Shown here piece after piece: positions 36,996 to 64,000 of a stretch of 64,000 nt of DNA. The position numbers and the translations under genes were made by a program. Source of the DNA: Escherichia phage phAPEC8; sequence record NC_020079.1; one strand, written 5' to 3'. The first letter of the stretch is position 1; each line of letters opens with the position of its first letter. Below the pieces are notes generated by a model. That model searched no databases, had not been told where the DNA came from, and saw nothing but the letters and a program-made list of their open reading frames with translations.

Positions 36996-36996
36996 T

Positions 36997-37031: not shown

Positions 37032-37058
37032 ATAAAAACTCTTTATAAATCAATAAGA

Positions 37059-37946: not shown

Positions 37947-37962
37947 TATTATCTCCTCTACA

Positions 37963-38355: not shown

Positions 38356-38400
38356 TGAATGCTATCCTATCATAAAATGTTTAATATTGTCAAGCTTTAA

Positions 38401-38994
38401 TTACCAAGGAATATCATCTTCTTCCAATCTGGTATCTACTTGAGGTGGACGTGGAACCTTAACCTCTTTCACAAAACGAAGATATGGGAAACGTGTAGCA
38501 ATTTTAATAACATGTTTGGCATCTTCTCTAACATCTTTGTGCAAGAAGCAGATCCCTGTTTCCAAGGTTGTTTCAAAATCTTTAGAATAATAACAGTCCT
38601 TCCCATCAAATGCAGCCTGGCAGATGGACAGATCGAACTCATTTAGAAAGGTTGTCATTACGCTTGGTTCCATAATCATAAGGTTGCAAAGCTGACCATC
38701 ACGTTCAAACTCAAAAACGTGTTTAAGACCAGTAACACCTTCATAATTGTCAGAAGCCTCTTTGTTCCCTAGTTTACGAATATTGGTTCCCATTAAAGCA
38801 GATGCAATTAATCCTTGTATTTGTTCTTCAGTCCGATGTGCAGGAAGGGATGTATAGAAATCCAGATCACGTCCAGCAATATCAAGAATACGCCAATCAC
38901 GAACAGCACCGCCAGCCAAGACAGAATTAGGATCAGCGATCTTTAATATGGTAAGAATTTCTTTGGCAATATTGATTTGTTTTGATTTAGTCAT
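38401..38994 (-). CDS. minimal Pol-beta-type nucleotidyltransferase (CCA-adding / poly(A) polymerase head-domain-like)
   Basis: 197 aa; N-terminal GGAVRDW...DLDF matches the GGAVRD + DxD catalytic signature of class II tRNA nucleotidyltransferases; no body/tail domains present. Confidence 0.5.
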   Translation of the reverse strand: MTKSKQINIAKEILTILKIADPNSVLAGGAVRDWRILDIAGRDLDFYTSLPAHRTEEQIQGLIASALMGTNIRKLGNKEASDNYEGVTGLKHVFEFERDGQLCNLMIMEPSVMTTFLNEFDLSICQAAFDGKDCYYSKDFETTLETGICFLHKDVREDAKHVIKIATRFPYLRFVKEVKVPRPPQVDTRLEEDDIPW

Positions 38995-39205
38995 TGATAC
39001 GCTCCACAGTTACTTTTACAACATCGTCCATATTAATCTCATCCCCCAAGACCTCAATAACACCTTCCTCATAAAGTCGAGCACATTCTTCCCACACTTC
39101 AGCTTCCGTCATTCCACCTGCAATCTTATTTGCAAGACCTTTAATAACATCTTCATTTTGTTCATCAACAAGAATTGAAACATTAAAGCTCACTAATTTA
39201 CGCAT
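38987..39205 (-). CDS. hypothetical small acidic protein
   Basis: 72-aa ORF; start overlaps the stop of the upstream gene. Confidence 0.4.
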   Translation of the reverse strand: MRKLVSFNVSILVDEQNEDVIKGLANKIAGGMTEAEVWEECARLYEEGVIEVLGDEINMDDVVKVTVERIND

Positions 39206-39215
39206 TGTTTTCTCC

Positions 39216-39368
39216 TTATACTTCTAAACGGAAAGTTTCTTTAGATACAAAATCGTATCCACCTTTTTCAAGCCAATCGTTGTAAACCTCATCGGCTTGA
39301 GACTCTATCATAAAATACCGAGTGGTAACTTCGTCTCCGACAATACGCACAATTTTATAGCAAATCAT
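39216..39368 (-). CDS. hypothetical small protein (50 aa, below ORF-track cutoff)
   Basis: Hand-translated ATG..TAA ORF (MICYKIVRIVGDEVTTRYFMIESQADEVYNDWLEKGGYDFVSKETFRLEV) filling an otherwise empty intergenic gap; weak SD. Confidence 0.3.
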   Translation of the reverse strand: MICYKIVRIVGDEVTTRYFMIESQADEVYNDWLEKGGYDFVSKETFRLEV

Positions 39369-39382
39369 GATACCATTTCCCA

Positions 39383-39574
39383 TTAATCTTCCTCCAGATC
39401 AATTTCATTATAACAATGTATACAGAAACCATCATTGTGCATATGTTGTTCATAAGACATATCTTTACCACAAGACCAACAACGGATATCCCCATCGTCC
39501 CATTCACGTTCTTCTTCACCTTCAAATTCATCTGGTAGGTAAGGCATACCAAAATAATCTAAATCGTAACTCAT
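39383..39574 (-). CDS. small acidic Cys-rich (zinc-ribbon-like) protein
   Basis: Track ORF 39383..39679 overlaps the polymerase 3' end; internal ATG at 39574 has SD AGGAG and gives a 63-aa product with CWSCG...CIHC. Confidence 0.4.
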   Translation of the reverse strand: MSYDLDYFGMPYLPDEFEGEEEREWDDGDIRCWSCGKDMSYEQHMHNDGFCIHCYNEIDLEED

Positions 39575-39587
39575 ATCTTCTCCTATA

Positions 39588-39605
39588 AAGGGGCAGAAGC
39601 CCCTT
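39588..39605 (-). other. GC-rich stem-loop between polymerase and small downstream gene
   Basis: Perfect 7-bp stem AAGGGGC/GCCCCTT with 4-nt loop; lacks a U-tract, so more likely a processing/stability element than a terminator. Confidence 0.35.
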
Positions 39606-39623
39606 ATAAAACAATACGTTAGA

Positions 39624-42221
39624 TCAATGACAGGATGCCCAGGAATTACCCACATCATATCCGGCAGTAAGCTGAACATTAAGATTGTAAAATTCTCCAG
39701 CCTTAGTAACAGCTAAGGCAGCAAGTTCACCTGCCCGACTATAGGCTGTAAACCATCCACCTTTGGGAGATTCATGAATGTTAGCCCAAATTTGTCCCGT
39801 CTCTTTTTCCTTATTATGCTTCCATTCTTCAACTTTAGCAAGGCATTCTTTATCAATTTTCTTTTGTTCTTCAGGATCGTCTACTTTCTTCCAACCTAAC
39901 GATTCAGGTGAAAACCATTTGAATTCTACAAGGTTACGAGAAACTTCAAGCTGGGCTTCATCGTGATATGCGATCATTTGTTGCACGAAGTCTTTATTCT
40001 TCCAGTCATCTTTAAAGAAGTCAACACTTAGTCCTTCTTCTTCGATCATGTCGTCATAAATAACCATTGCACGTTTAGCACAGATAACCCCACCACTTTG
40101 GAACAGAGAGTTAAGAATCGCGTGAGCAGAACGAGTAGGAACCTTACGACCGTCAATACCCAAAACATATTGTTTACCAGTCTTAACCCAGAAATCGTTT
40201 AAACGTTCTTTAAGACGCGCCAATGGGAATGCAGCTTCCCAGAAAGCATCGAACACCAATTGACCTGTAAACTTATCGCTACCAATTGTTTTAGCAACCT
40301 TGTCGGCTTGTGCACCATAGGTAATACCATACTTAACAGATTTAGCAGGACTACGTTCAAATTTACGTCCAATAGTTTCAGTGATACGTTTTGCCATCAT
40401 TGTGTGAACATCATTAGGTTTCTCTAACAGCAGAGCGTTACAATATTCGTGTGGCTCCGGCTCGTACCGCCAACAGTAGTGTGATTCAATTTTTGCTTCC
40501 AAAGAGTCGAAGTCGTAGCCGATCTGGAAGTATTTAGGAACCTCTACACCAAACAAGTTACGCATCTCCCATCCAAACAAAGATGTGACACGAGGAATAT
40601 TAGCTACAGATCTATGCTTCATACGAGAGGTTGCAGCATCACATGTAGCGGCTGGTGTAGGAATACGCCCATCCGCCCTTACTGCGGCTAAGAAACCTTT
40701 ATCGTATTCTTGATCTTCTTCGTCTTCTTCCCAATCAGCACCGCCACCTAAAATAGAGTTCCTACGATGCTTATACGTTAAGTATTCTACAATCTGTGTA
40801 GCATAAGGGAATTTCTCACCCAAAGCTTGCAGGTTAGGACAGATTTCTTTTTCCTGACCTTTGGTAAAACATGGGTTAGTCAATACTTTAAGACCGCGAC
40901 CTTTACCTTTTGCTATACGCTCTTGAATCTTCCTTTCCAAGGTTTCCGGTGTGCACTCCAGATGATCACAACGGTCCTGACAAAAATTAGAAGATAGAGT
41001 TTGCTCAACGTAAGCTCGAATACCTTTCTGAAGTTCTTCCTCGCTCTTTTTAATCTTGGTGCCAGATTTAAGAGTCAAGTCTTTATCTTTATATTCAGAC
41101 GGTACCCAACCTAATCCTACAAGCCAGTTTTTAATATGGGTTGTATCGTTCAATGTTGCAGGGATGTTAGGATCACACAGAGGCTCATCTGCTGCAACTG
41201 GCAGTTTCCACTCTTTCCCCAACATAACTAACCACCAATCGCCATCCCTCTCTTCCAAATGACCATCATGTTTCTTAGCAAAATTGATCATATGGTTAGT
41301 TGGCTCTAAGTTCTTTTTAATTTGCAACTTAGGTGGAATAAAAGCTTTAAGATAACCTTTTGTTGCTGGTTTAGGTGGCAAAATAGGCTCAACGAGTAAA
41401 CGAAGACGCTCCATTTCTGCATCCAAAAAAGCAAGGTTCTCTTCTGCTTGTTTCATGTTAAAAGCAAACCCACGGTGTTCCTGGCGTGTAATAATGTCTG
41501 CTACACGTTGTTCAAGTTCAAATGGACCTTCCCATTTATCATAATCACCCCATTCTTCCATAAGGTAATTATATACGCTCGTATTGGCTTTGTTGTCATA
41601 GATACAGTAATAAAGCATATCCGCAGCAAAAGTCTTAAATCGATCTTCTTCTGGAATCTCTTTACGGAAATCTATTTTTACATCACCACCTGCTTTTCGA
41701 GAAAGTGCTGCCAAGCTATGTCCTGATTTGCCCTCAATCTTTCGATCTGGGTTTAACACTTTACTCAAAATCAAGGAGTCAATAAGTTTTACCTTATTTT
41801 TGCCCCACGTATTATATTTAACACTGTAATCTAATCCATAAAACAGTTTTGTAGCCAACCAGTCGTAGTTGATACCGTTGTGAGCCACAGCCATTTCAAC
41901 CAGATATTCAGGCTTGTCTTTAAAATAACCTTCATGATTAATAAAATCTGGGAAATCTTTTAGTTGAAAATGTGTGTAATCTTGTGCCACATACTCTTTA
42001 AGAACATATGTGTATTTACCATCTGACTCTTCATAAGGACGCCCATCAAAGATGTATTTAGGGCCATCGTGGAAAGCTACTATTTCTCCTGTTTCATGGT
42101 TCTCTAAGACAATACAGTGCATTTGAAATGTGTCTTTGAGACGATAAGGACTAGCTAAATAATCAATAGTGTCATTATTCAACAATCCGTTTGCTTCAAT
42201 ATCCCATGTAAACTTACTCAC
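39624..42221 (-). CDS. DNA polymerase, family A (PolA/T7-like) with 3'-5' exonuclease domain
   Basis: 865 aa; Exo I motif WDIEANGL at N-terminus; motif B-like RSPAKSVKYGITYGAQ and motif C-like AYHDEAQLEV; GTG start overlapping the methyltransferase stop, with SD AAGGAGG. Confidence 0.8.
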   Translation of the reverse strand: MSKFTWDIEANGLLNNDTIDYLASPYRLKDTFQMHCIVLENHETGEIVAFHDGPKYIFDGRPYEESDGKYTYVLKEYVAQDYTHFQLKDFPDFINHEGYFKDKPEYLVEMAVAHNGINYDWLATKLFYGLDYSVKYNTWGKNKVKLIDSLILSKVLNPDRKIEGKSGHSLAALSRKAGGDVKIDFRKEIPEEDRFKTFAADMLYYCIYDNKANTSVYNYLMEEWGDYDKWEGPFELEQRVADIITRQEHRGFAFNMKQAEENLAFLDAEMERLRLLVEPILPPKPATKGYLKAFIPPKLQIKKNLEPTNHMINFAKKHDGHLEERDGDWWLVMLGKEWKLPVAADEPLCDPNIPATLNDTTHIKNWLVGLGWVPSEYKDKDLTLKSGTKIKKSEEELQKGIRAYVEQTLSSNFCQDRCDHLECTPETLERKIQERIAKGKGRGLKVLTNPCFTKGQEKEICPNLQALGEKFPYATQIVEYLTYKHRRNSILGGGADWEEDEEDQEYDKGFLAAVRADGRIPTPAATCDAATSRMKHRSVANIPRVTSLFGWEMRNLFGVEVPKYFQIGYDFDSLEAKIESHYCWRYEPEPHEYCNALLLEKPNDVHTMMAKRITETIGRKFERSPAKSVKYGITYGAQADKVAKTIGSDKFTGQLVFDAFWEAAFPLARLKERLNDFWVKTGKQYVLGIDGRKVPTRSAHAILNSLFQSGGVICAKRAMVIYDDMIEEEGLSVDFFKDDWKNKDFVQQMIAYHDEAQLEVSRNLVEFKWFSPESLGWKKVDDPEEQKKIDKECLAKVEEWKHNKEKETGQIWANIHESPKGGWFTAYSRAGELAALAVTKAGEFYNLNVQLTAGYDVGNSWASCH

Positions 42222-43015
42222 TATCCCTCCTTTCTAATGTTCTCCAGAACCCACTGAAGTTCTTTTAAACTTAAACTTCTTACTCCCGCAGTTTTACTAG
42301 CTTCAGCTTTAAGTAACGGGTAAGCCTCAATGATACGCGTTTTAAGATCAGAAGTCAAGGCTTTTAAAAAATAGGTAGATGCTTCAGATAAAGAATCCTC
42401 TTCTGATAACACTTTACCTGCACTTGCTCCCGCTCTCCTAACGGCTATGTCGTAGTCTTTACTGTTGCCTAATACGAATAGTCGATTTTCTCCTAAAACA
42501 ACGGGAGAACGCTTCTCGTTGCGTTTAATCCATATCTGGAATACACAAGGAACATCCCAAGGTTCTCCATGAAGAATAAAAGATCCTTTTGGACATTCTT
42601 CTTCGTAAAGAAGATGCATGTGGGGATTTAGTTTGTGTGCAAAAAAGATTTTTTGAAATGTGCGAGGCAAGATAAAACAAATACCACCTTCGTTATCCAG
42701 CATTTCAGCACAATGGTTAAAGAATTTAATGGCAAGACTAGCATTTTTTCCAAACGGAGGATTACCGACAAAAGCAGTTACACTGCCAACAGACTCAACA
42801 GATTGAGCTAAAAAATCTGCCTCAATACAATCTTCAAACTTAGGGTCAATATCAAAAGAAGTTATGTTTTTAAAACAAGAAGAGAAAGCTCCTTCTCCCG
42901 CAGATGGTTCTACGTAGTTAGCTTCCTCTCCAAAAATTTCTTTGATCTTATCACATAAGAACCCCGCATAAGCGGGGTTAGTGTAATATTGATCAAGTGT
43001 GTTCAACTTGCTCAA
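42221..43015 (-). CDS. SAM-dependent methyltransferase, N6-adenine/N4-cytosine DNA MTase-like (NPPF motif)
   Basis: 264 aa; motif I-like VEPSAGEGAF and motif IV VGNPPFG; translationally coupled to the DNA polymerase gene. Confidence 0.55.
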   Translation of the reverse strand: MSKLNTLDQYYTNPAYAGFLCDKIKEIFGEEANYVEPSAGEGAFSSCFKNITSFDIDPKFEDCIEADFLAQSVESVGSVTAFVGNPPFGKNASLAIKFFNHCAEMLDNEGGICFILPRTFQKIFFAHKLNPHMHLLYEEECPKGSFILHGEPWDVPCVFQIWIKRNEKRSPVVLGENRLFVLGNSKDYDIAVRRAGASAGKVLSEEDSLSEASTYFLKALTSDLKTRIIEAYPLLKAEASKTAGVRSLSLKELQWVLENIRKEG

Positions 43016-43024
43016 TAGTCCTCC

Positions 43025-43456
43025 TTAGTTGTTAGCGAACTCAATAGTGAGGTCAACTTTACCATCGTCAGAAATAACCATGTTTTTGGTATTTTTAAAG
43101 ATGATATCTACTTTACCTTCACTTACACGACAGAATGCAACACCATCTGCAACTTTATCGATATAATATTTGTAAGAAAGAATACCCACTTTACTACGAC
43201 CAGCACCTTTTGTGAAAGAAGGGCTTACATCGAAACGGAAACCTTTAGAAGAAACAACACGGTAAGAACGTCCAGTTGGAAGATGTTCAATAACAGAGAC
43301 ATTATTCTCAACAACTTTTACAGCAAACTCTTCAGGATGATCCTCAACAATCATATGTGGGATGGCAAATGCCAACGCTTGTTTGTGTTTAATAACACCA
43401 GCACCCAGAGCACCAGCAGCTTTAACTTTTGCATTCAGATCGATTGTCATACGCAT
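43025..43456 (-). CDS. hypothetical protein
   Basis: 143-aa ORF with SD GAGGAG and its own consensus promoter upstream. Confidence 0.5.
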   Translation of the reverse strand: MRMTIDLNAKVKAAGALGAGVIKHKQALAFAIPHMIVEDHPEEFAVKVVENNVSVIEHLPTGRSYRVVSSKGFRFDVSPSFTKGAGRSKVGILSYKYYIDKVADGVAFCRVSEGKVDIIFKNTKNMVISDDGKVDLTIEFANN

Positions 43457-43489
43457 TTTTACTTCTCCTCTTGTTTGGTTGATGAGACA

Positions 43490-43518
43490 AGTATAAGTCT
43501 CTTCCGTAAAGTTGTCAA
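43490..43518 (-). promoter_or_regulatory. sigma70 consensus-like promoter on minus strand (TTGACA-N17-TATACT)
   Basis: Minus-strand TTGACA (43513-43518), 17-nt spacer, TATACT (43490-43495); 34 nt upstream of the ATG at 43456. Confidence 0.5.
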
Positions 43519-43534
43519 CAGGTATTTTTAATAA

Positions 43535-43550
43535 AAGGGCCGAAGCCCTT
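43535..43550 (-). terminator. stem-loop at primase-helicase stop (probable terminator)
   Basis: Stem AAGGGC/GCCCTT with 4-nt loop overlapping the stop codon; minus-strand downstream sequence begins UUAUU. Confidence 0.4.
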
Positions 43551-45327
43551 AATAGTTGCTATCCGTAGGCAAATTAGCAGGATTGTTGAAATACTGCTCT
43601 TTGTCATGCAGAGTTGCAGTTCTAATGTCATAGTAAAACTGCCCTGCCGGACCAGTTTCTGAGAACTCACGGTTTTTTAGGATAAAGCAATGAGTCGTAT
43701 TGCGTTCTACAGGGTCTTCAGCGGCTTTATCTCGTTCCAAAGCCAAGGTAATACCAGCACCTTTAGCCAAGAAACTACTACCCATTGCATCGTCCTCTGT
43801 TAAGTGTTCATTGCCACCATTAGCCGATTTCTTAACGTGTGAGATGACAATAATAGTTATAGCATACTCTTTCATGATGCGCTTCAACCATGTTGCTAAC
43901 TCTTCCTGGGCTTGAACATCCATACCAGAAAGCAAATCAGAATAAGGGTCGATAACAAGAATTGTTACTCCAAAATAGATGATCATCTCCAAAACTTTTT
44001 CTTTGATAGACTCCACATCTGCTCCACGATCATCACACACATAAAAACGTGGTGATCCATCTTCTCTTTCGTAAAAATCTAGGATTTTTTCTTTATTCTC
44101 TTCCAAGATTTGAAATTTCTCTTCCGGTGTTTTCCTGTGTAGAGGAATATGCAGGAACGAGGACAACAGGTTACGAGAATATTTCTTATAAGTTGCTTCC
44201 AAGGACAGAATACCTAGGGTATGTTCTGGGTGCGCAACAATAATATGTTTGGTGATCTCGTTCACCATCAAAGTTTTACCGATACTGGTCTTTGCCAGGA
44301 TAACTGTAATCTCTTCCTCTACTAAACCACCACCCAGCATATTTGCAGCAACACGCATAAAAGGAGGCAAGGTAATCATCTTGGATTCCAAGCATTCTAA
44401 TGCAGCTTCATACAAGACATTAGAAGCATAAACACCTGCTGGGGTGTATAGACGAGCACTCCAAAAAGCTTTTACGAAATCTTTTGCACGACCTTCTTCC
44501 AGATACTGATTGGCATCCTTAAGATCCATCTGCATACGGTAGACTTTGTTACGAGGCAACACCTTAACAATATTTTCAAATGCCTCATTACCTGCTTTGT
44601 CATTATCCATGCAAACAATAATCTTCTTAAATTTTTCAAAGAAAGGATATTGTGCCTGAACTTGTTTATACATACTGGTTTCACCAGTTGTGCCACTAAC
44701 TACTGCTGGAAGTTCATATTTGTTGTCCAAGTTTTCAGACAGCATTTGATAAGCTGCCAGAGCATCGTGTTCACCACCTGTAATTACCACAGTATGAGAA
44801 CGGTCTGCAAAACGAATTTGTCCAAAAAGATCTACATCTTTACCTACTTGACCAATAGGTTTACTGAAATCTTTAGGATGAATACGACGCTTAAAACCAA
44901 CCAATTCTTTACCGATAGTAGTTGGATATAAACAACTTTCTACTACCATCTGATCCCCTTCCTGGCGGTATTCATAACGAACACCATAGAAAGATGAAAC
45001 TTTTTCTTTAATGCCTCGATAACCACGTGGGTTGGTTGATGTTTCTTGAACAATTTTACGATGAATCTGTTTATTAAATTCCGAACCCACAATCTCCTCC
45101 TCTTCTTCTAAAACTTCACCATTTTCTCGTAACCATTCTACGCTAGGAATAGTGTATTCACACGCAAAGCACTTAGCACCTTTATGCTCTCCATTAGAAT
45201 CTAATCCATAAACCATCAGGTTATTACGAGAGCGATCCTTGCCATTTTTCATGCAGCGCGGACAACCTGTATGTCCTTCCTTGCTAAGATCAACATCAAA
45301 TCCATATTTAGTTATAATGTGCGACAC
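43549..45327 (-). CDS. DNA primase-helicase (T7 gp4-like: zinc finger, TOPRIM, DnaB-type helicase)
   Basis: 592 aa; N-terminal CxxC...CxxC zinc ribbon (CPRCMKNG...CFACEY), TOPRIM motifs (ITGGEHDALAAY, CMDNDKAGNEAF), Walker A AKTSIGKT and Walker B ILVIDPYSDL. Confidence 0.8.
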   Translation of the reverse strand: MSHIITKYGFDVDLSKEGHTGCPRCMKNGKDRSRNNLMVYGLDSNGEHKGAKCFACEYTIPSVEWLRENGEVLEEEEEIVGSEFNKQIHRKIVQETSTNPRGYRGIKEKVSSFYGVRYEYRQEGDQMVVESCLYPTTIGKELVGFKRRIHPKDFSKPIGQVGKDVDLFGQIRFADRSHTVVITGGEHDALAAYQMLSENLDNKYELPAVVSGTTGETSMYKQVQAQYPFFEKFKKIIVCMDNDKAGNEAFENIVKVLPRNKVYRMQMDLKDANQYLEEGRAKDFVKAFWSARLYTPAGVYASNVLYEAALECLESKMITLPPFMRVAANMLGGGLVEEEITVILAKTSIGKTLMVNEITKHIIVAHPEHTLGILSLEATYKKYSRNLLSSFLHIPLHRKTPEEKFQILEENKEKILDFYEREDGSPRFYVCDDRGADVESIKEKVLEMIIYFGVTILVIDPYSDLLSGMDVQAQEELATWLKRIMKEYAITIIVISHVKKSANGGNEHLTEDDAMGSSFLAKGAGITLALERDKAAEDPVERNTTHCFILKNREFSETGPAGQFYYDIRTATLHDKEQYFNNPANLPTDSNY

Positions 45328-54704: not shown

Positions 54705-55291
54705 TCTTCATTCTCCTCTTCTGCATCTCTTATATATGGTGAAACACCGTACTCTTTAGCTACTTTAACCCAATCGTCCCATTTATACAACCATAATTTT
54801 CCTTCGGTCCCTTCTTTATCTGATTTCAACCACATATTAGGTTGCTTACCTGGGTACATGCGATTAGGTTTACGATTATAACCTCTAACACATCTTGTCG
54901 CAAACCCATCTACCAGAACAAGAACATATTTATATTCGTGGTTCAACGGCTCTTTGGAAGTGGCTTTAGGATTAGCCCCTAATTCTGCTGCCAGTTTTTG
55001 CCAATGAGCACCGTGCCTACTAAACTTACCCATACAACCATCAATAGCATGAGCAATTTCGTGCTTCATTGTGTCCACGATCATATCTCTTGTGGAGTTC
55101 TTATGCAAGTGCCAATTTACAACAACAATTTTATCTCGGTAGTTGCACCAACCGAAAGAGTTATTCACTTTGTTTCTAACACAAGCTTTATATCCTGCTT
55201 CACGTAACATGTTGTAGTAAACAGGAAAATCTTCTTTTATTTCCTGCATCACTTCCCACCACAAGAGTTGCAAGTCTCTCTCGGTATGCAT
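54701..55291 (-). CDS. SprT-like zinc metalloprotease domain protein
   Basis: 196 aa; HEIAHAIDG (HExxH) followed 8 residues later by HGAHW, the SprT-family pair of motifs. Confidence 0.6.
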   Translation of the reverse strand: MHTERDLQLLWWEVMQEIKEDFPVYYNMLREAGYKACVRNKVNNSFGWCNYRDKIVVVNWHLHKNSTRDMIVDTMKHEIAHAIDGCMGKFSRHGAHWQKLAAELGANPKATSKEPLNHEYKYVLVLVDGFATRCVRGYNRKPNRMYPGKQPNMWLKSDKEGTEGKLWLYKWDDWVKVAKEYGVSPYIRDAEEENEE

Positions 55292-55294
55292 AAC

Positions 55295-55888
55295 TTACAC
55301 CTTAAAAGCGAAATGCGTGGTCGTGGCTTCAAAATCAGGGCCAGATAAACTTGCACTGAAATCTGAAATATTTGTAATTAAAAAGCTTTTATGCATACCT
55401 AACACAGCCACGCTTTCAATATCTTCTACTAACATTTCAATCATGTTAGAAACATGGCTGAACGTATAGTTTTGTTTTTTGATGGTGTAGAAAGAAAGAC
55501 TCCCACCTGCTGTATAAGATACCTCTTCAAAATCTTTAATCGTATATTGTGTACCATCAGTAAAGAAAATGGTAGCTTTATTAGTAGCACGTTTCTTGTT
55601 TTTTGGTCCTTTTTTACGTTTACTGCGAGTAGGCAAACCGTTTGGGAACACCGTAGCTACAAATTCTTCAGGGGAAACCTCCTTACCGAAATCATAATCG
55701 TAAGAAACAGCGTCTATACACTCGTCGTCTTCATTTTTAAAATAATGAAAATAGGGCCAATTTGAGAGATTATCGAGCATCTTATGCGCATCCACAACAG
55801 AGAACGTATCCCTCAAAGCACGTGTGATTTGCAAAGCATTAGGCAAACTTTTAACACCTGTAATGGAAGTACGAATAGAAATTGTCAT
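55295..55888 (-). CDS. hypothetical protein
   Basis: 197-aa ORF with a basic central patch (RSKRKKGPKNKKRATNK). Confidence 0.45.
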   Translation of the reverse strand: MTISIRTSITGVKSLPNALQITRALRDTFSVVDAHKMLDNLSNWPYFHYFKNEDDECIDAVSYDYDFGKEVSPEEFVATVFPNGLPTRSKRKKGPKNKKRATNKATIFFTDGTQYTIKDFEEVSYTAGGSLSFYTIKKQNYTFSHVSNMIEMLVEDIESVAVLGMHKSFLITNISDFSASLSGPDFEATTTHFAFKV

Positions 55889-55902
55889 TGTTTTTCTCCT
55901 TA

Positions 55903-56355
55903 TTAACGTCGCTTGCTACGAGATGAACTCTTTTTACTTAAAGGGCTATTGTAAGATTTACGAGTTGTATAGCTACTATTTGTTTTAAAAGTTTGTCTCG
56001 GCTTTTCATAAGTTTTTATCTCTTGTTTAGGCTTACCATAAAAATTAGTTTTCGGTTTAGGTGTATTATAATGCTTATTAATAATCGTTCTGTTATCGTT
56101 ATAATCCCCACTGCTACGATTACTACCACCACTCATCATATGCCCTAACAACATACCTGTAGCAAACTCACCAACACCGCTACTACTAGAACCGCCACCA
56201 TTGTTGATAATAGTTGTATCTCCGTCAGATCCTTGTTGAGCGTATTGTTGAGGAGGTTGTTGGTATTGTGCAGGATTTGTTTCATCCTCGCAAGCTGTTA
56301 AAAAGATACAACCAATTAAAATCAGGGCTAGTTTTTTCATATTTGCTTTCCTCAT
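55903..56355 (-). CDS. lipoprotein (signal peptide + lipobox LTAC), Gly/Ser/Gln-rich
   Basis: Track ORF 55903..56415 trimmed to MRKANMKKLALILIGCIFLTAC; classic n-h-c signal region with lipobox Cys; alternative start at 56340. Confidence 0.5.
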   Translation of the reverse strand: MRKANMKKLALILIGCIFLTACEDETNPAQYQQPPQQYAQQGSDGDTTIINNGGGSSSSGVGEFATGMLLGHMMSGGSNRSSGDYNDNRTIINKHYNTPKPKTNFYGKPKQEIKTYEKPRQTFKTNSSYTTRKSYNSPLSKKSSSRSKRR

Positions 56356-56527: not shown

Positions 56528-56874
56528 TTTAAAAATACCTCATCATCAGTCTCATTATCCCAGAAGAACAAATCCCAACCATTCGGATCATTCCATTTGG
56601 CTGCTGGAGAAGTCCATATTTGTTCGATATCAATATTCAAAACTTCACCGTTTCGTTTTGAAACAGCTTTAGTTAATTCCCAACGAGATACAGGCTCTAC
56701 TTCCCCTGAACCACTCCCACAACAAGCTACCACGTTAGGAGGCAAATTAATTGGATCTTTGGTCACGATCATAACGCTTACCCCAGGGTAAACTTTTGAA
56801 AGATAATCTAAAACGTAATCCACATCACCAGATAAATCCCAAACAAGTTCTTGAATTTCATCAAAATTATTCAT
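56524..56874 (-). CDS. hypothetical protein
   Basis: 116-aa acidic ORF immediately downstream of the TerC-like gene. Confidence 0.45.
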   Translation of the reverse strand: MNNFDEIQELVWDLSGDVDYVLDYLSKVYPGVSVMIVTKDPINLPPNVVACCGSGSGEVEPVSRWELTKAVSKRNGEVLNIDIEQIWTSPAAKWNDPNGWDLFFWDNETDDEVFLK

Positions 56875-56916: not shown

Positions 56917-57891
56917 TTAAACAGCAGCTTCTTCTTTTTCAGGGAAGATAAAGCTTGCAATAACACCAAGAGCTAATGTGCCTAGAACAATCATCAGACT
57001 TACGTTAGGGGAAATATCATGCGGGAGGAATGACCACTTGGCATGAAGTGTTTCACCGAACGGGTGATACATAAGTTTAGCACCGACAAATACCAGAACC
57101 ACAGCAACAGCTTTCTCTAAGTGAACCAGATATTTCACAGCCACACTTAACACAAAGAAAAGTGCACGTAAACCAAGAACAGCCATCAGCATTGCAGAAT
57201 AAACTAGCAGAGGTTCTTGTGTCACACCGATCACAGCCGGAACTGAATCAAAAGAGAAGACAATATCTGTAAGCTCAATAACAAACACACAAAGAAGAGC
57301 AGGAGTTGCATATTTAATACCATTCTTAATGGTGATGAACTTTTCACCATCTAGTGCATTGTGCACAGGCAGAACTTTACCTACTAAACGAACAGCCCAA
57401 TGCTTAGAGTAATCAATATCCTCTTCTTCGTCACCACCTTTGATGATAGCCACGGCAGACCAAGCTACAATCAAACCGAACAACACTTGGACCGACCAAT
57501 GAAGGTTAAACAAAGCGGTCCCTGCTGCAACAAAAATACCTCGGAAGACAATGGCTCCTGCAATCCCCCAAAGTAAAATCTTATGTTGGAGATGTGTGCT
57601 CTTAATTCCAAAGCTTGCAAAAATTGCCATGAACACCATCAAGTTATCTACAGAAAGACTCTTTTCCAACACATAGCCACTTAGGAAAAGCGCGGCAAAC
57701 TCTTTACCATGTTCTACCCAAATGAATGCGTAATATCCTAAAGCTAAAGCAATCCAAAAAACAGACCAAAGCAAAGCAGATTTAATTCCAATTTCTTTAT
57801 TCTCTTTATGACCAAAGAAATCGATACCAATAGACAATGCTAAAATACCAACCAAAACAACTACATCAATAATGGGGAAACCAAGTTGCAT
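56917..57891 (-). CDS. TerC-family integral membrane protein
   Basis: 324 aa, multi-pass hydrophobic; contains EKSLSVDNLMVF and ELTDIVFSFDSVPAVIG, matching the two conserved TerC blocks (SxDN and ExxDxxFxxDSxPA). Confidence 0.6.
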   Translation of the reverse strand: MQLGFPIIDVVVLVGILALSIGIDFFGHKENKEIGIKSALLWSVFWIALALGYYAFIWVEHGKEFAALFLSGYVLEKSLSVDNLMVFMAIFASFGIKSTHLQHKILLWGIAGAIVFRGIFVAAGTALFNLHWSVQVLFGLIVAWSAVAIIKGGDEEEDIDYSKHWAVRLVGKVLPVHNALDGEKFITIKNGIKYATPALLCVFVIELTDIVFSFDSVPAVIGVTQEPLLVYSAMLMAVLGLRALFFVLSVAVKYLVHLEKAVAVVLVFVGAKLMYHPFGETLHAKWSFLPHDISPNVSLMIVLGTLALGVIASFIFPEKEEAAV

Positions 57892-57910
57892 TATTTTCTC
57901 CTTTCTCTTT

Positions 57911-57929
57911 GCGGGGAACCACTCCCCGC
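57911..57929 (-). promoter_or_regulatory. 5'-UTR stem-loop upstream of the TerC-like gene
   Basis: Stem GCGGGGA/TCCCCGC with 5-nt loop, 20 nt upstream of the ATG at 57891 and downstream of a promoter-like element; no U-tract. Confidence 0.3.
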
Positions 57930-57941
57930 CTCATGTGATAC

Positions 57942-57969
57942 ATCTTACTCTATTCTAAAACTTTGTCAA
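57942..57969 (-). promoter_or_regulatory. possible sigma70-like promoter (TTGACA-N16-TAAGAT) upstream of the TerC-like gene
   Basis: Consensus -35 TTGACA (57964-57969) with a weak -10 TAAGAT (57942-57947). Confidence 0.3.
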
Positions 57970-57972
57970 CAC

Positions 57973-58194
57973 TTATTTTGAAGAACTTGAGGAAAAGATC
58001 CCACGTAGTACAGCCATGATAAATGCCACACACACCACAGTCCAGAAGGTGACAGGAACAGTGATATCTGTGTGACCCATCATTTCAACAACGTAGTTAT
58101 AAGCCAGCAGCAGAAGCCATGCTGGAATCATACTAATCAGAAAAGCAATAACAAACACAATAATCACTGCAAGAATACCTGCTAAAACGCCCAT
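57973..58194 (-). CDS. small hydrophobic membrane protein (3 predicted TM segments)
   Basis: 73 aa, almost entirely hydrophobic (ILAVIIVFVIAFLISMI, WLLLLAYNYVV, VTFWTVVCVAFIMAVL). Confidence 0.45.
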   Translation of the reverse strand: MGVLAGILAVIIVFVIAFLISMIPAWLLLLAYNYVVEMMGHTDITVPVTFWTVVCVAFIMAVLRGIFSSSSSK

Positions 58195-58207
58195 AATATT
58201 TCTCCTC

Positions 58208-58681
58208 TTAAAGTTTATAAATAGTCACATCGTGACCTGTTTTTACTAAAGTTTCTTCAATCATCACTTGGATGATAGCCCAATTACCTCCAGCATGTCC
58301 AGCGCCAATCATAGGTAAGCCGATCTTACATTTTTGGTCACGGAGAAGCAAATCGTTAGCCATAGCTATTAGTGCATCGTAAAGTGCATCATAGTCCAAC
58401 TGACGACCTTTAGCATTGTATCCGTAACGGTATTGCCCGTATAGATTATATACCAAAGGGTCTGATTGTTCGTCTGGCACTCCTAAACTAAAACAACCTA
58501 GTTTACTTTGATCACCAGCCATTGTGTCTAAGTCTGCTGCATATGCGTAAGGAAATGCTCGTTTGATTTGTGGGGCAATACCTGCCCCCATATTACACAT
58601 ACAGTTGCAACAATGAGCAATAACAGTTACTTCACCTGCTTTAGCGGCATCAATAAGATTACCTGTTTTCATTTTAAGCAT
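58208..58681 (-). CDS. macro domain protein, TARG1/DarG-like (ADP-ribose-processing hydrolase)
   Basis: Track ORF 58208..58786 trimmed to the ATG with SD AAGGAG just after the upstream stop; motifs VIAHCCNCMCNMGAGIA and GLPMIGAGHAGGNW...VTIYKL parallel human TARG1 (AHCISEDCRMGAGIA, MPRIGCGLDRLQW...ITVYTL, from memory). Confidence 0.65.
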   Translation of the reverse strand: MLKMKTGNLIDAAKAGEVTVIAHCCNCMCNMGAGIAPQIKRAFPYAYAADLDTMAGDQSKLGCFSLGVPDEQSDPLVYNLYGQYRYGYNAKGRQLDYDALYDALIAMANDLLLRDQKCKIGLPMIGAGHAGGNWAIIQVMIEETLVKTGHDVTIYKL

Positions 58682-58694
58682 TTTTAGCTCCTTA

Positions 58695-59522
58695 TTACAG
58701 AATGTGTTGTTTTGTGTAACGATCCAAGAATTCAAAGTTTTCAGCATACTTTGAAATTCGGTTGTAACCTTCTCCCAAGCATCCAAAGAAAAGTTGCTCT
58801 ACATAGTAATGTGGCAATTGGCTAAGAATGATTTTGAAGTCTTCATGATTTTGGCCCATAAGATACTTAATAGGACGAACAAGACACTGTGCATCACGTT
58901 CTTCATTAATCATTTTAACAAACGCTTCCGGTGTATTAATGTAGTTAAAATTCAGTTTAGCTTCGGTATCTGCTTGATTACCTTCATATTTTGCAAAATA
59001 CAGGAAGTAAACATCATTTTTAACTTGATTTTCATTAAGGATCTCAATCAGTTTGTCTTCATGCGTTCCAGTGATATTTACATCATCAATGAATACAAGC
59101 TTCTTATCACCCCAGAATTCTTTGTTACAGTAGAATGTATCCCCATCAATAAGTTTCTTACGACTAGCTTTATCCAAGAAACCATAATCGTTGATATAGC
59201 TAACTTTACGATGAATAATGTCCAGTTCTGCTGAACGACCTTGATCATATTGTGATTGCAACATATTAAAGTAATTAATAAAATGATCTGTCATCATTGT
59301 TGCAGCATTATGCACATGGTTGTAAGGAGAAGGAATGATAACAAATTGTTCCCCAATATGTTTCATTGCCACTTGAGCAAAAAACTGAAGTGCCAATTCT
59401 TTACCCATACGACGCGCGGCTTGGTTACTACCAAATTTCAATTTTGAATAATCTTGGATATCAAAAGTAGCAGTTTCCAGGTCATCAAATTTATTTGCAA
59501 AAATTTGAGTTTGATTACGCAT
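58695..59522 (-). CDS. type I phosphoribosyltransferase-fold protein (PRPP-binding loop)
   Basis: 275 aa; KKLVFIDDVNITGTHEDK matches the PRPP-binding motif (hydrophobic-DD-x-x-TG-x-T) of type I PRTases and PRPP synthetase homologues. Confidence 0.5.
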   Translation of the reverse strand: MRNQTQIFANKFDDLETATFDIQDYSKLKFGSNQAARRMGKELALQFFAQVAMKHIGEQFVIIPSPYNHVHNAATMMTDHFINYFNMLQSQYDQGRSAELDIIHRKVSYINDYGFLDKASRKKLIDGDTFYCNKEFWGDKKLVFIDDVNITGTHEDKLIEILNENQVKNDVYFLYFAKYEGNQADTEAKLNFNYINTPEAFVKMINEERDAQCLVRPIKYLMGQNHEDFKIILSQLPHYYVEQLFFGCLGEGYNRISKYAENFEFLDRYTKQHIL

Positions 59523-60171
59523 TTACAATTTCTCCTCTTTTAAGTTTCTCTAGTAAGTCGTTAGGGTTCTTAATATGACAGAAGTTAAATCCTAAGTCAA
59601 CACATTTTCCATCATATTCTTCACTATCGCCTACGTGCAATACTTCGTGCCCTAACAGAGGGATCGGAGAATACGTGAGCGTGCGAGCAAAGAATCGCGG
59701 ATCTGGTTTACAAAGTAAAGCTTCATCCGAGAAATGGGTGAACTCAAAACAATTCCAACTATCAAACTTACAAGCACGACGCAGGATATCCCCTGATATA
59801 AAGTTGGTATTGCTCTTAATACTCAAATCATAACGTCCCGAAAGATACAGCAAGTACATCGGCAGATCCACGGCTACGTGTGGTGGAAACTTAAGGAACC
59901 ACTGTTCACACTCGAAACGAAGCTTTGCAGACTTCCAAGGTGTTATCCCAAGTTCAGAACCAAGTCTTTCCCAGGCGTATGCTGCACACTCGGCTTTGCC
60001 TTGAAGTGCTGCATTATCCAGTTCCTTTTTGATCTTCTTATAAGCTGCTCTTGCTTCCACTTCCGTAATATCTCCATATTTTGCGATAGTCCAGGCTCGC
60101 ATGTCTGCGTAATTGGAGTTTGCTGTGATCAGTGTGTTCCATACATCAAAAGAGATATGTTTAATAGTCAT
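59515..60171 (-). CDS. HAD-superfamily hydrolase-like protein (putative phosphatase)
   Basis: 218 aa; N-terminal ISFDVWNTLI (motif I-like, Dx(W)xT) and C-terminal LHVGDSEEYD (motif IV GDxxxD); second Asp of motif I is replaced, so assignment is tentative. Confidence 0.4.
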   Translation of the reverse strand: MTIKHISFDVWNTLITANSNYADMRAWTIAKYGDITEVEARAAYKKIKKELDNAALQGKAECAAYAWERLGSELGITPWKSAKLRFECEQWFLKFPPHVAVDLPMYLLYLSGRYDLSIKSNTNFISGDILRRACKFDSWNCFEFTHFSDEALLCKPDPRFFARTLTYSPIPLLGHEVLHVGDSEEYDGKCVDLGFNFCHIKNPNDLLEKLKRGEIVNA

Positions 60172-60172
60172 A

Positions 60173-60778
60173 TTAAGCCCACCATGCGTCTAAGTTAAGA
60201 TTACTGTCCACTACCACTTGTTCTATGTGGTAGCCTTTTATCTGTATCCCACTGTTCAAGAGCATATCATACGCTTCATTGAAACGCAACTTATCTTCTG
60301 CGGAATATAAGCGAGCATTATAAAATCGGTAATCAATTTCTTCAGCATTAGAAGAAATACGGAAGAAGTTTGTTTCTACTTCGGGATCACTTGCTGAAGT
60401 CTTAATGTGAACTTCTCCGTAATTTTCTTTACTTAGATCCATGAAAAGAACACAGGCAACATGTTTAAACATTCGTTCCAGTTTGTAACGAACAACATTG
60501 AAACCTGCATTCTCAAGTTTTTCTACACACTGCAACATTAAAGTAGTGTCGAGATCGCTTTGATACTTTGTTAACATACGATCACGTTGAGACTTTGTAT
60601 CCCGATGTAAATCAATTGTTGTGCATTTGGCACCAATAATCTTAGCTGCTTTCATCAACTCTTCAGAACTAACGTTAGATAAAGTAAGATGAAAGTGGGC
60701 TTTCCACACTTTTTTAGCAGGGACACCAAAAGATTTATCCCCACTATTCGGCATGTTGACTACTACACTATGTTGCAT
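60173..60778 (-). CDS. hypothetical protein (one HxTx motif, possible 2H-phosphoesterase relative)
   Basis: 201 aa; contains HFHLTL but a clean second HxT/Sx motif is missing. Confidence 0.4.
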   Translation of the reverse strand: MQHSVVVNMPNSGDKSFGVPAKKVWKAHFHLTLSNVSSEELMKAAKIIGAKCTTIDLHRDTKSQRDRMLTKYQSDLDTTLMLQCVEKLENAGFNVVRYKLERMFKHVACVLFMDLSKENYGEVHIKTSASDPEVETNFFRISSNAEEIDYRFYNARLYSAEDKLRFNEAYDMLLNSGIQIKGYHIEQVVVDSNLNLDAWWA

Positions 60779-60793
60779 TACTTATCTCCTCAC

Positions 60794-60985
60794 TTAAAAT
60801 GGAAGTCTTTGAAGTTCATCTCCTCCGATATCAAGTAATTTAGCAACATCTCGATCAGAAAGCAACTCTTTTCTTTGTAAAATATCCACAAGGGTTGCAA
60901 GAATGTCCTTAACGTCCCGATCACTGTTCTTCAAAAGTTCTCCTGCCGTCCCTACTCTATCTCCTACAGCAAAATATGTAACCAT
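60794..60985 (-). CDS. hypothetical small protein
   Basis: 63-aa ORF between nrdG and the downstream metabolic genes. Confidence 0.4.
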   Translation of the reverse strand: MVTYFAVGDRVGTAGELLKNSDRDVKDILATLVDILQRKELLSDRDVAKLLDIGGDELQRLPF

Positions 60986-60997
60986 GAAACCTCCTAG

Positions 60998-61468
60998 TTA
61001 ATCTGATTGCCAACCACTTGCCGTTTTGGTCCATAATCTTTGATTATCTGACCCTCTGAAAGGTTTTGTAGTTGGATTGTTTATTTCATACTTTCCGTCT
61101 ACAATAATGTCAACAAGATTTTTAATATACAAAGGCACTTCCTCAAAAGTATACCCTGTATACACCATTATATCTTTGCTTGACCCATAAACGTCTCTAA
61201 CCTTTTCTATAAGGTTTTTAACATTGTAAATATTCTGTGGATCTAATGGCTCTCCTCCTAAAATTGTTAAACCTTTTACAAACGGTCTTGACAAATCTTT
61301 TAAAACTTGCTCTACATTTTCGTGAGTAAACGGTTTCCCATAAGAATAAGACCAGGCTTTTTGGTTAAAACAGCCACGACAACCGTGGCTACAACCACTA
61401 ACCCAGAGGGAGCACCTAACTCCCTCACCATTAATAAGATCTACAGGTTCGTATCCTGCAAAATTCAA
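60998..61468 (-). CDS. nrdG: anaerobic ribonucleotide reductase activating protein (radical SAM)
   Basis: 156 aa; VDLINGEGVRCSLWVSGCSHGCRGCFN parallels E. coli NrdG (VDIVNGPGTRCTLFVSGCVHECPGCYN, from memory); start overlaps the nrdD stop. Confidence 0.85.
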   Translation of the reverse strand: MNFAGYEPVDLINGEGVRCSLWVSGCSHGCRGCFNQKAWSYSYGKPFTHENVEQVLKDLSRPFVKGLTILGGEPLDPQNIYNVKNLIEKVRDVYGSSKDIMVYTGYTFEEVPLYIKNLVDIIVDGKYEINNPTTKPFRGSDNQRLWTKTASGWQSD

Positions 61469-63279
61469 AAATGTTTCTCCCTTTGCAAAACTTCCTGCAT
61501 TTTACCTTTGTTGTAAGGCCGTGAATTAGGGGCAGAAAGATACCCTGATACACGTCTAACTACAGAAATAGTTTCTTCTTCATGGTTGCCACAATCAGGA
61601 CACTCAAACCCTTTAGCCGTTGCCTTAAATTCTCCATGAAAACCACACTTAAAGCATTGATCCACGGGCTGATTAATACCAAAATAGTGAATATGTTCAT
61701 AAGCGTAGTCTACTAAAGTCTCCAAAGCTTCTAAGTTATTCTTTAAGTTTGGTGTTTCGACATAACTTATGTTACCACCATTACTAATCTGTGCAAAACC
61801 TGCTTCATAATCCCATTTTTCAAAAGGATTTGTTACCAACCACACAGGTTGATGAAAAGAGTTAGTAAGATAATCTCTTTCTACCAAACCTGGGTATTTT
61901 TCATTTAAAGCTGTTGCAAACTTATAGCACAAGGATTCTGCTGGAGTTCCATAGAGACTAAACGCCAAATTAGATCGTTCTTTAAACACAGCACACACAT
62001 CTTTCATATGTTGCAGAATGTTTTTACCAAGTTCCTTTTTATCTTTTTCTTCTGGATAAAGGATTTCCAAAGCTTCGGCAAGACCTACATAACCAATACT
62101 AATAGAAGCATAACCACCTTCAAACAAAACACCAATTTCATCGTTGGCATTTAAACGCGCTAAAGCCCCTTCCATGAAAAGAATAGGGTTTTCAGATGCT
62201 TTGGTATGTCTGATACGGTTTACACGTAGCATGTGAGCATCGTAGGCTATCTCCATATGTTTATTAAGAAGATCGGTGAAAGATTCTCCTTTACTTCTCG
62301 CTTCCGCAGCGATCAGAGGTAAGTTGATAGAAACTACTCCAAGGTTGAATCGTCCATCGTATTTTTCTCCTTGTTCTGTGGCATAGTACGACAAAAAGGA
62401 ACGACAACCCATACTCGTAACAGTGCCATCTGCTGATCCCGTAACTTCTTTGTTCAAAGGAACAGAAATAAAATCTGGATAAATACGATCAGCACAACAT
62501 GCCAAAGCTTGTTGCTTAAGGTCATAGTTAGGATCACTAGGTTTCATGTTAACACCTTCTTGTAAAAAGAAAATAACTTTAGGGAATACAGGCGTTACAT
62601 GATCTTTGCCTAGACCATTACTATGCACTTTAAGATAGTTAGCTGTGATCATTCTGCCAAAAACAGAGGTATCCAGACCCATACTGATTGTAATAAAAGG
62701 AGATTGTCCATTAACACTCATTAAAGTATTAACCTGATACAAGAGAGTTTGCATAGCATCATATACATCTTGTTCGGTCATTTCTAGGGCTTCTTTCCTT
62801 GCATAACAACCGTAGCGACGTTTGGTTATCTCCATGTTTTTAAGGAAACTAGCTTCAACATAAGGACTAAGACCTTTATCAATGTGCGCACACGTCTGAC
62901 CTCCATACTGACTGGAGGCAACAGCTTGGATGATTTGAGTTAGCACTGTGGTAGCTACTCCAATAGATTTTGGTTTTTCTATCTGTGCGGCACCGATTTT
63001 AAAACCATTTTCTAACATATCTTGATAATTAACAAGACAACAGTTTGTAAGAGGAGAGAGCAGATAATCCAAGTCGTGAATATGTCCAAAACCTTCTGTA
63101 TGCCACTCTGACAAGTTTTTTGGCAGTATCTGTGTCATTGCCATATGTTTGCTTAAAATCCCCGCCAAGAGATCCCTATGCGTGTTAACGAGGTGGGAAG
63201 GTTTGTTTGCATTCTCTCTAGTGTATGTTTCTGAAGTACGATCTAAAAAAGAAAAAACATCTTGGTACAAATCTTTCAT
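61465..63279 (-). CDS. nrdD: anaerobic ribonucleoside-triphosphate reductase (glycyl-radical enzyme)
   Basis: 604 aa; C-terminal zinc ribbon CFKCGFHG...CPDCGN followed by glycyl-radical motif RRVSGYL; gene pair order nrdD-nrdG. Confidence 0.85.
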   Translation of the reverse strand: MKDLYQDVFSFLDRTSETYTRENANKPSHLVNTHRDLLAGILSKHMAMTQILPKNLSEWHTEGFGHIHDLDYLLSPLTNCCLVNYQDMLENGFKIGAAQIEKPKSIGVATTVLTQIIQAVASSQYGGQTCAHIDKGLSPYVEASFLKNMEITKRRYGCYARKEALEMTEQDVYDAMQTLLYQVNTLMSVNGQSPFITISMGLDTSVFGRMITANYLKVHSNGLGKDHVTPVFPKVIFFLQEGVNMKPSDPNYDLKQQALACCADRIYPDFISVPLNKEVTGSADGTVTSMGCRSFLSYYATEQGEKYDGRFNLGVVSINLPLIAAEARSKGESFTDLLNKHMEIAYDAHMLRVNRIRHTKASENPILFMEGALARLNANDEIGVLFEGGYASISIGYVGLAEALEILYPEEKDKKELGKNILQHMKDVCAVFKERSNLAFSLYGTPAESLCYKFATALNEKYPGLVERDYLTNSFHQPVWLVTNPFEKWDYEAGFAQISNGGNISYVETPNLKNNLEALETLVDYAYEHIHYFGINQPVDQCFKCGFHGEFKATAKGFECPDCGNHEEETISVVRRVSGYLSAPNSRPYNKGKMQEVLQREKHF

Positions 63280-63350
63280 TATTAATCCTTATTTTGTGAG
63301 TAGAACTATTATTCTACCTCTTCCAACCGAAAAAAGCTTTGAGGAAAATC

Positions 63351-63374
63351 AAAAAAGGCGCAAAGTGCGCCTTT
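63351..63374 (-). terminator. rho-independent terminator upstream of nrdD
   Basis: Stem GGCGCA/TGCGCC (63357-63371); on the minus strand it is followed by U6 (plus-strand A6 at 63351-63356). Confidence 0.6.
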
Positions 63375-63379
63375 AAGTT

Positions 63380-64000
63380 TTATCGTTTGGAGAGGAATTG
63401 TCTTCCCATGATCTTACCGTTCTTTACAGCGGTCCCATCGTGTCCATTATAATCCCAAGTTCCATCAATGTTACGCAAGAAGCTATCACGAACAGTGTAG
63501 GCTTTACCGTTCTCTACTTTACTTTCTTCAACAATGATTGCCATAACAAGCTTATTTTCAATTTCGGTAGTAACCGATTCTTTAATACCCTCTGTAACTT
63601 CACGATCATATTGGATATAAACTCGCTCCTCGGTTACTTGCACATCAACCACATTTTTAAATGTGTATGTCTGTTGTGTAGTGTAGAGGACACGAACGAC
63701 ACTCTTCTTACCTACCGGAGGCTTCTTACGAGGCTTACGGTAACGTGGTTTAGGGTTGTTAGTTGGAAGCCAACCAACAATATCCCGATCATATCCAACA
63801 TGACCCCAAGTGAAATGCGTAGCCGATCCACTATCCGTAGTTCCGTCACGAAAGAGAACTTCTACGTGACCACCACAAGGGCGGTGTCCACCATTATTAT
63901 AGTTGTATTTTGCCGTGCGCGGGAGAATGAAGTATTCTTTAATCGCCCACTCTTCCAGATTGTCGATATTCCAAGTGAATACTGTTCCCTTAGCAACATC
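63380..64000 (-). CDS. partial ORF (N-terminus beyond window), possible M15-like peptidoglycan peptidase domain
   Basis: Track ORF 63380..63652 is the 3' end of a frame that stays open to nt 64000; in-window part includes NYNNGGHRPCGGHVEV, loosely resembling the GGHVE ending of L-Ala-D-Glu peptidase endolysins. Confidence 0.3.
   Translation of the reverse strand, partial: DVAKGTVFTWNIDNLEEWAIKEYFILPRTAKYNYNNGGHRPCGGHVEVLFRDGTTDSGSATHFTWGHVGYDRDIVGWLPTNNPKPRYRKPRKKPPVGKKSVVRVLYTTQQTYTFKNVVDVQVTEERVYIQYDREVTEGIKESVTTEIENKLVMAIIVEESKVENGKAYTVRDSFLRNIDGTWDYNGHDGTAVKNGKIMGRQFLSKR

Follow-up and report, generated by a model that had tools for sequence, protein, structure and literature searches.

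Positions 60,998 to 63,279 of the 64,000-nucleotide (nt) stretch of Escherichia phage phAPEC8 DNA analyzed here (sequence record NC_020079.1; hereafter, the window) hold two minus-strand genes, nrdD and nrdG, which encode a class III (anaerobic) ribonucleotide reductase (RNR) and its activase. The region very probably represents the nrdD-nrdG operon of a Phapecoctavirus, specifying a T4-type class III RNR that would form one half of a dual supply of deoxyribonucleoside triphosphates (dNTPs) and would be read from an FNR-type promoter. The nrdD gene (61465..63279, minus strand) encodes a ribonucleoside-triphosphate reductase of 604 amino acids (aa), as determined from its open reading frame (ORF), hidden Markov models and an alignment with the bacteriophage T4 enzyme. 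The protein matches the Pfam NRDD family over its full length (E 2.3e-164) as well as Gly_radical (E 2e-27), and it exceeds the cut-offs of the NCBIfam equivalogs PRK09263 (763.7 bits; cut-off 657) and TIGR02487 (532.7 bits; cut-off 326). Its closest solved structure is T4 NrdD (1h78; E 5.6e-168), to which it is 47% identical over 589 aligned residues. Residues were mapped through the 1h78 alignment, indexed on T4 numbering. The T4 active-site residues C79, M288, C290 and N311 correspond to C80, M290, C292 and N312 of the window protein and are all identical; the C-terminal zinc-ribbon cysteines C543, C546, C561 and C564 correspond to C542, C545, C560 and C563, and the radical glycine G580 (Ala in the crystallised mutant) corresponds to G579. 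The radical motif reads RRVSGYLS in the window protein, in keeping with the C-terminal pattern RVxG[FWY], versus RRTCGYLG in T4 and RRVCGYLG in E. coli, and its serine is invariant across the NrdD clade to which the window protein belongs. No ATP-cone was found in the window NrdD, given that Pfam PF03477 returned no match and that the match to PRK09263, a model of 712 positions, does not start before position 97; most bacterial NrdD proteins possess this domain, though it does not define the class. The ORF is uninterrupted by a group I intron, and an Rfam search of window positions 57800-64000 returned no intron and nothing near threshold.

The nrdG gene (60998..61468, minus strand) encodes the 156-aa radical S-adenosylmethionine activase of NrdD, again identified by ORF, hidden Markov models and alignment. 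The protein scores 164.5 bits against TIGR02491 (cut-off 126) and matches Pfam Fer4_12 (E 3.3e-42); a comparison with PDB sequences gave no match. Its CX3CX2C cluster consists of C26, C30 and C33, and it aligns with the NrdG proteins of E. coli (39% identity) and T4 (44.6% identity) through CX3CX2C, GGEPL, DGK and RGSxNQ. nrdG starts with TTG, preceded 8 nt upstream by GGAG; since this start overlaps the nrdD stop by 4 nt (TTTTGAAT), translational coupling of the two genes is suggested. The model scores of both proteins are far beyond chance. A first-pass annotation, made from the sequence alone, had named NrdD by its glycyl-radical motif and zinc ribbon and NrdG by a radical-SAM-type cysteine cluster; the ORFs lie exactly where it had placed them, and equivalog scores and conserved residues bear out both identifications.

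The 6 kb surrounding nrdDG are 99.8% identical to Escherichia phage vB_EcoM_ASO2A (ASO2A; Stephanstirmvirinae, Phapecoctavirus), placing the window in Phapecoctavirus, and show 94-98% identity to dozens of further phAPEC8-like phages. The entire window is collinear with positions 66,022-130,006 of the ASO2A record at 98.6-99.2% identity. Over the 2,282 bp of nrdDG the identity to ASO2A is 100%, as it is between the window NrdD protein and ASO2A_225, and the genes are annotated there as class III RNR large and small proteins. NrdD homologues were detected by tblastn in 2,922 of 50,697 phage records, and nrdDG at ≥80% coverage in 61. Because the pair is annotated in ASO2A and its NrdD has so many homologues, it is already known and common, with annotations in dozens of near-identical genomes. 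The first-pass annotation had also seen no class I enzyme in the window and had allowed that one might lie elsewhere in the genome. Both points held: tblastn of the window with the ASO2A NrdA, NrdB, glutaredoxin and ThyA proteins gave nothing below E = 2, and ASO2A itself carries nrdA (746 aa) and nrdB (361 aa) at record positions 40,928-44,619, roughly 21 kb before the start of the window. ASO2A NrdA is a class Ia protein matching Pfam Ribonuc_red_lgC (E 2.9e-97), Ribonuc_red_lgN and, weakly, an ATP-cone; NrdB matches Ribonuc_red_sm (E 8.3e-33). A Pfam-confirmed glutaredoxin (86 aa; 36,522-36,782) is encoded near nrdAB, ~90 kb from nrdD; together the three genes lie ~21-30 kb ahead of the window. 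A match to the nrdAB region with a coverage of ≥80% was obtained in 69 phage records.

In the 100 nt that precede nrdD, a strong terminator hairpin is followed by an FNR-like box, a -10-like hexamer and AAGGA, after which comes the ATG. The intrinsic terminator-like hairpin (63354..63374, minus strand) has a 9-bp stem with five G-C pairs followed by a T-run; it was found by a hairpin scan, is annotated as a terminator in ASO2A, and has a predicted RNA fold of -14.3 kcal/mol (z = -3.2). It would end the upstream 462-aa gene and insulate nrdD from read-through. The putative FNR box, TTGATTTTCCTCAA (63339..63352, minus strand), is a palindrome matching TTGAT-N4-ATCAA at 9 of 10 positions, with a T rather than a G before TGA, the feature that separates FNR from CRP sites. 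The hexamer TAGAAT (63311..63316, minus strand) lies exactly 22 nt downstream, a spacing that puts the predicted center of the box ~41.5 nt upstream (-41.5) of a predicted transcription start at ~63301-63306. There is no recognisable -35 element in the nrdD upstream region, which is usual for class II activator-dependent promoters. A Shine-Dalgarno-like AAGGA (63286..63290, minus strand), read from the sequence, precedes the nrdD ATG by 6 nt. The consensus for FNR is TTGATnnnnATCAA, and in 19 of 23 E. coli promoters activated by FNR the site is centered at -41.5 ± 4 (Myers 2013, PMC3688515).

A match to the FNR box alone is weak evidence. Three comparisons lift the site above chance, namely the rarity of the composite motif, its recurrence in diverged relatives and the selective conservation of the half-sites. 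The composite motif was defined as a box with at most one mismatch, a spacing of 21-23 nt and at least 5 of 6 matches to TATAAT. With both strands counted, it occurs only twice in the whole 151,660-bp ASO2A genome, one occurrence being the nrdD site in the right orientation, and shuffled copies of the window contain a mean of 0.26. The other occurrence (an FNR box, 22 nt and TAAAAT; window 56851-56864, plus strand) is antisense inside a minus-strand gene in the ASO2A_216 region and is probably due to chance, though it could drive an antisense transcript.

The arrangement of box, spacing and -10 hexamer recurs ahead of nrdD at 18 loci, representing 15 distinct sequences, among Phapecoctavirus, Justusliebigvirus, Klebsiella phage KP13-16 and jumbo phages with sequences of 350-378 kb. 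The boxes have 0-1 mismatch and the box-to--10 spacing is 21-23 nt, while the upstream regions have otherwise diverged to the point that those of the relatives cannot be aligned with that of the window. Justusliebigvirus W22 has the box TTGACTAAGATCAA and KP13-16 the box CTGATTTAAATCAA, each followed after 22 nt by TAAAAT; in an IMG/VR contig (L015) whose NrdD is 87% identical to that of the window, the box TTGATCCTGAACAA is followed by the same hexamer after 21 nt. The jumbo phages (14 IMG/VR loci and one GenBank locus, L011), with NrdD proteins 61-64% identical, have a spacing of 22-23 nt and the hexamer TATAAT, which in some loci is an extended -10, TGnTATAAT. In 11 jumbo-phage loci the boxes are perfect palindromes (TTGATCTAGATCAA, TTGATCCAGATCAA and TTGATTTATATCAA). 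Over the 15 distinct promoter sequences, the information content is 1.80 bits in the half-site columns, whose TGA/TCA cores are invariant, compared with 0.68 bits in the 25 nt upstream and 0.71 bits in the first 20 nt of the spacer.

From the sequence and these comparisons, we infer that FNR, the oxygen sensor of the host, would act on a class II promoter in front of nrdD and switch on nrdDG under anoxia, so that the oxygen-labile enzyme would be made only in anoxic cells. For the clade of enterobacterial phages comprising the Stephanstirmvirinae and the 350-378 kb jumbo phages as a whole, we lean, by a modest degree, towards a conserved class II FNR site that replaces the -35 element of nrdD and through which the redox state of the host would be read. 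Several observations weigh against such control. Boxes with at most one mismatch are not enriched across the window (8 found versus 5.8 ± 2.3 expected), and the box of the window itself has a mismatch and overlaps the T-tail of the terminator. In both W22 (L008 ~2440-2480) and KP13-16 (L009 ~2140-2180), a hairpin resembling a terminator, with a U-run, separates the predicted -10 from the ribosome-binding site and hence lies downstream of the predicted start; this leader hairpin could be a terminator or attenuator, or a 5' stabiliser. No box is present where nrdD lacks a promoter region standing by itself, as in phage nom and loci L017 and L018, in which an ATP-cone nrdD follows nrdAB-grx, nor upstream of nrdD in T4 itself or in T4-like contigs, the matches in these contigs lying inside ATP-cone coding sequence. 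The nrdD of the T5-like SE11 likewise has no box, and a plain sigma-70 promoter (TTGACA-17-TATAAT) is found in a T5-like phage. Control by FNR is therefore no general property of phage nrdD genes, seeing that nrdAB-grx-embedded, T4-like and T5-like genes are all without the box; no box of the required kind was found in the nrdD upstream regions of Crifsvirus, a Felix-O1-like phage and an Aeromonas phage either. These observations could be accommodated if nrdDG were expressed regardless of oxygen, by read-through or from an unrecognised phage promoter, with the FNR-like box being fortuitous or part of the terminator T-tract, much as T4 nrdD abuts gene 49 without a promoter of its own and T5-like nrdD has a plain sigma-70 promoter. 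We regard oxygen-independent expression as possible but doubtful, as box, spacing and -10 are kept in 15 distinct upstream sequences with diverged flanks, the perfect 10/10 palindromes of the jumbo phages lie ~35 nt away from terminators, and only two copies of the composite motif are present in 151.7 kb. No report of an FNR-controlled phage nrdD was found in the literature searched.

The conserved residues and the established chemistry of class III enzymes allow a mechanism to be proposed. NrdG, with a [4Fe-4S] cluster on C26/C30/C33 and S-adenosylmethionine, would take hydrogen from Gly579 of NrdD; the glycyl radical would then be passed to Cys292, and the resulting thiyl radical would attack the ribose of ribonucleoside triphosphates, with Cys80 and Met290 finishing the reduction and the four-cysteine zinc ribbon keeping the glycyl loop in position. 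The reading RVSGY is that of the radical motif in pyruvate formate-lyase, and on this resemblance, set against RTCGY in T4 and RVCGY in E. coli, the large protein might be another glycyl-radical enzyme of that kind, or an inactive remnant. Such a reading is effectively refuted by the sequence: NrdD stands above the NrdD equivalog cut-offs over its full length, shares 47% identity with T4 NrdD and keeps all RNR-specific residues and the zinc ribbon; the serine variant is invariant in the whole clade, and the best pyruvate formate-lyase activase models score far under cut-off for NrdG. As regards the reductant, a Cys/Met pairing at the C80/M290 positions marks the formate-dependent subtype NrdD1, common to T4 and E. 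coli, and since the window NrdD has this pairing, host formate is its likely reductant. The glutaredoxin encoded in ASO2A raises the alternative of a thioredoxin- or glutaredoxin-dependent subtype (NrdD2 or NrdD3) using the phage glutaredoxin in place of formate. We consider this very unlikely, in that the Met-Gly-Cys loop (M290, C292) and C80 match the formate-dependent T4 and E. coli enzymes, the nearest NCBIfam model is the E. coli-type PRK09263, and the glutaredoxin gene sits with nrdAB, far from nrdD. The rule tying C80, M290 and C292 to the formate subtype is known from the literature, and the assignment draws on that rule together with the conserved residues. Lacking an ATP-cone, the window NrdD should, like that of T4, escape shut-off by dATP.

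The first-pass annotation had taken the pair as a sign of adaptation to anaerobic niches such as the gut. The part of that claim which stands is that the class III RNR and its activase are genuine; specialisation was overstated, ASO2A having a class Ia enzyme as well. An anaerobic-niche specialist relying on class III RNR alone would agree with a 64-kb window free of class I genes and with the origin of many isolates in sewage, faeces or poultry, but it is extremely unlikely in view of the class Ia nrdA, nrdB and glutaredoxin that the collinear ASO2A carries outside the window and of the nrdAB region in ~69 related records. Phages of facultative anaerobes mostly carry class I and class III enzymes together, and class III-only phages are those that infect strict anaerobes (Dwivedi 2013, PMC3653736); dual class I and III content is likewise stated for a Stephanstirmvirinae phage (PMC12210895). 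Because the two classes are standard equipment of phages of facultative anaerobes, nrdDG is a capacity to replicate with or without oxygen and not a mark of anaerobic specialisation: the phage is equipped for both oxygen regimes. The class III enzyme would be the oxygen-free half of the dual dNTP supply, and class Ia NrdAB with glutaredoxin the aerobic half. The putative FNR promoter is consistent with conditional, anoxia-only use of nrdDG.

The closest known counterpart is T4, whose NrdD (605 aa) is nearly equal in length to that of the window and similarly without an ATP-cone, whose nrdG lies downstream of nrdD, and whose genome also encodes class Ia NrdAB. T4 differs in that its nrdD is interrupted by a group I intron with I-TevII, whereas the window gene is intron-less; mobC is inserted between T4 nrdD and nrdG, whereas the window genes overlap; and no promoter lies between gene 49 and the adjoining T4 nrdD, whereas the window nrdD has a terminator-plus-promoter region. 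E. coli nrdDG encodes the same enzyme pair, with 45% (NrdD) and 39% (NrdG) identity to the window proteins, and the host operon is FNR-activated (PMC2892513, PMC4009431, PMC3688515), with a 1-mismatch FNR box upstream. The host NrdD, however, is 712 aa long with an ATP-cone, and the host promoter region of ~390 bp has boxes centered 242 and 211 nt before the ATG with an NrdR-box-like CACTATATATAG adjoining (read from the sequence), in contrast to the single phage box 66.5 nt before the ATG in a region with no sequence similarity to that of the host. Recent capture of the host nrdDG or its promoter was rejected on the basis of the 45%/39% identities and the unrelated promoters, which point to an old phage lineage of nrdDG. 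Within the same subfamily, KP13-16 encodes an NrdD of 706 aa (L009 2198-4318) that is 71% identical to the window protein and has an ATP-cone (Pfam, 64 bits), so that forms with (706 aa) and without (604 aa) the ATP-cone coexist; two small ORFs separate nrdD from nrdG in KP13-16.

The predicted phage promoters resemble the class II FNR-activated promoters of E. coli (such as ydfZ, narG and dmsA), in which TTGAT-N4-ATCAA at about -41.5 stands in place of a -35 element, and the half-site variant seen in locus L015 is also that of the ydfZ site, TTGATaaaaAACAA. The E. coli promoters are chromosomal and experimentally validated, whereas the phage sites are predictions on the DNA of lytic phages. 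Phage auxiliary metabolic genes under host regulators are known from cyanophages, whose pstS and phoA have PhoB boxes. There too, a site bound by an environmental sensor of the host makes a phage metabolic gene conditional; the cyanophage case involves a regulator other than the oxygen-sensing FNR, another host group and another gene, and the FNR case is a prediction.

Downstream of nrdG, no convincing terminator occurs until ~57901-57929, according to both the ASO2A annotation and the hairpin scan, and therefore the six genes behind nrdG (57973-60985, minus strand), with no strong terminator between them, may be co-transcribed with nrdDG. They encode a 63-aa ORF, a 201-aa ORF without a family, a HAD hydrolase (REG-2/YjjG-like, weak), a ComF-like PRTase_3 protein (143 bits), a Macro domain protein (Poa1p/DarG-like, weak) and a 73-aa membrane protein. 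The string may constitute an ADP-ribose or nucleotide-processing module. It was not counted in the RNR module, because conservation of this gene set behind nrdG does not extend to W22 or KP13-16. For the 201-aa protein, an AlphaFold prediction without an alignment was unusable (predicted local distance difference test score of 37). Directly upstream of nrdD, an ORF of 462 aa (ASO2A_226) runs from 63380 to beyond 64000 on the minus strand, with its translation open to the window end. Some GenBank records name this ORF a 'class III ribonucleotide reductase', and PHROG 15930 gives it as 'ribonucleotide reductase'. As a candidate third RNR gene it was rejected, since there was no Pfam match, the best PDB match had E 0.67 and the best similarity to NrdD had E 0.36; the label is probably a propagated misannotation. 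A 90-aa GTG ORF at 63380-63652 was likewise discarded as an artefact of ORF listing at the window edge, as the frame continues without a stop to the last position and the gene is not truncated.

Some relatives have a group I intron in nrdD, inserted where the gene encodes the catalytic Met-Gly-Cys-Arg loop (residues 290-293). The intron of phage nepoznato (L003 5429-6165; ~770 nt) contains an ORF for a 169-aa HNH endonuclease and scores 39.3 bits in Rfam, below the gathering score; that of an IMG/VR contig (L035 1707-1992; ~290 nt) is ORF-less and scores 70.4 bits, above gathering. The window has no intron at the corresponding site, nt 873/883 of nrdD (~62397-62407). The T4 nrdD intron lies elsewhere, between the positions of window residues 177 and 182, and nrdD of phage nom is split after approximately residue 191. 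Outside the region corresponding to the window, ASO2A encodes a Sir2-like protein, a four-gene dTDP-rhamnose pathway, an RNA ligase and 12 tRNAs (23786-24586, 36782-40060, 55047-55979 and 61157-63169), the context of a large auxiliary-metabolism complement.

The gene pair itself brings nothing new and fits the well-described class I plus class III pattern of coliphages; the correction to be made is that nrdDG is no marker of an anaerobic specialist. If the predicted control is true, a lytic phage would make an auxiliary metabolic gene conditional on oxygen by way of the FNR of its host, a hypothesis that can be tested cheaply and that would matter for the behavior of therapeutic Phapecoctavirus phages in the gut as compared with aerated culture.

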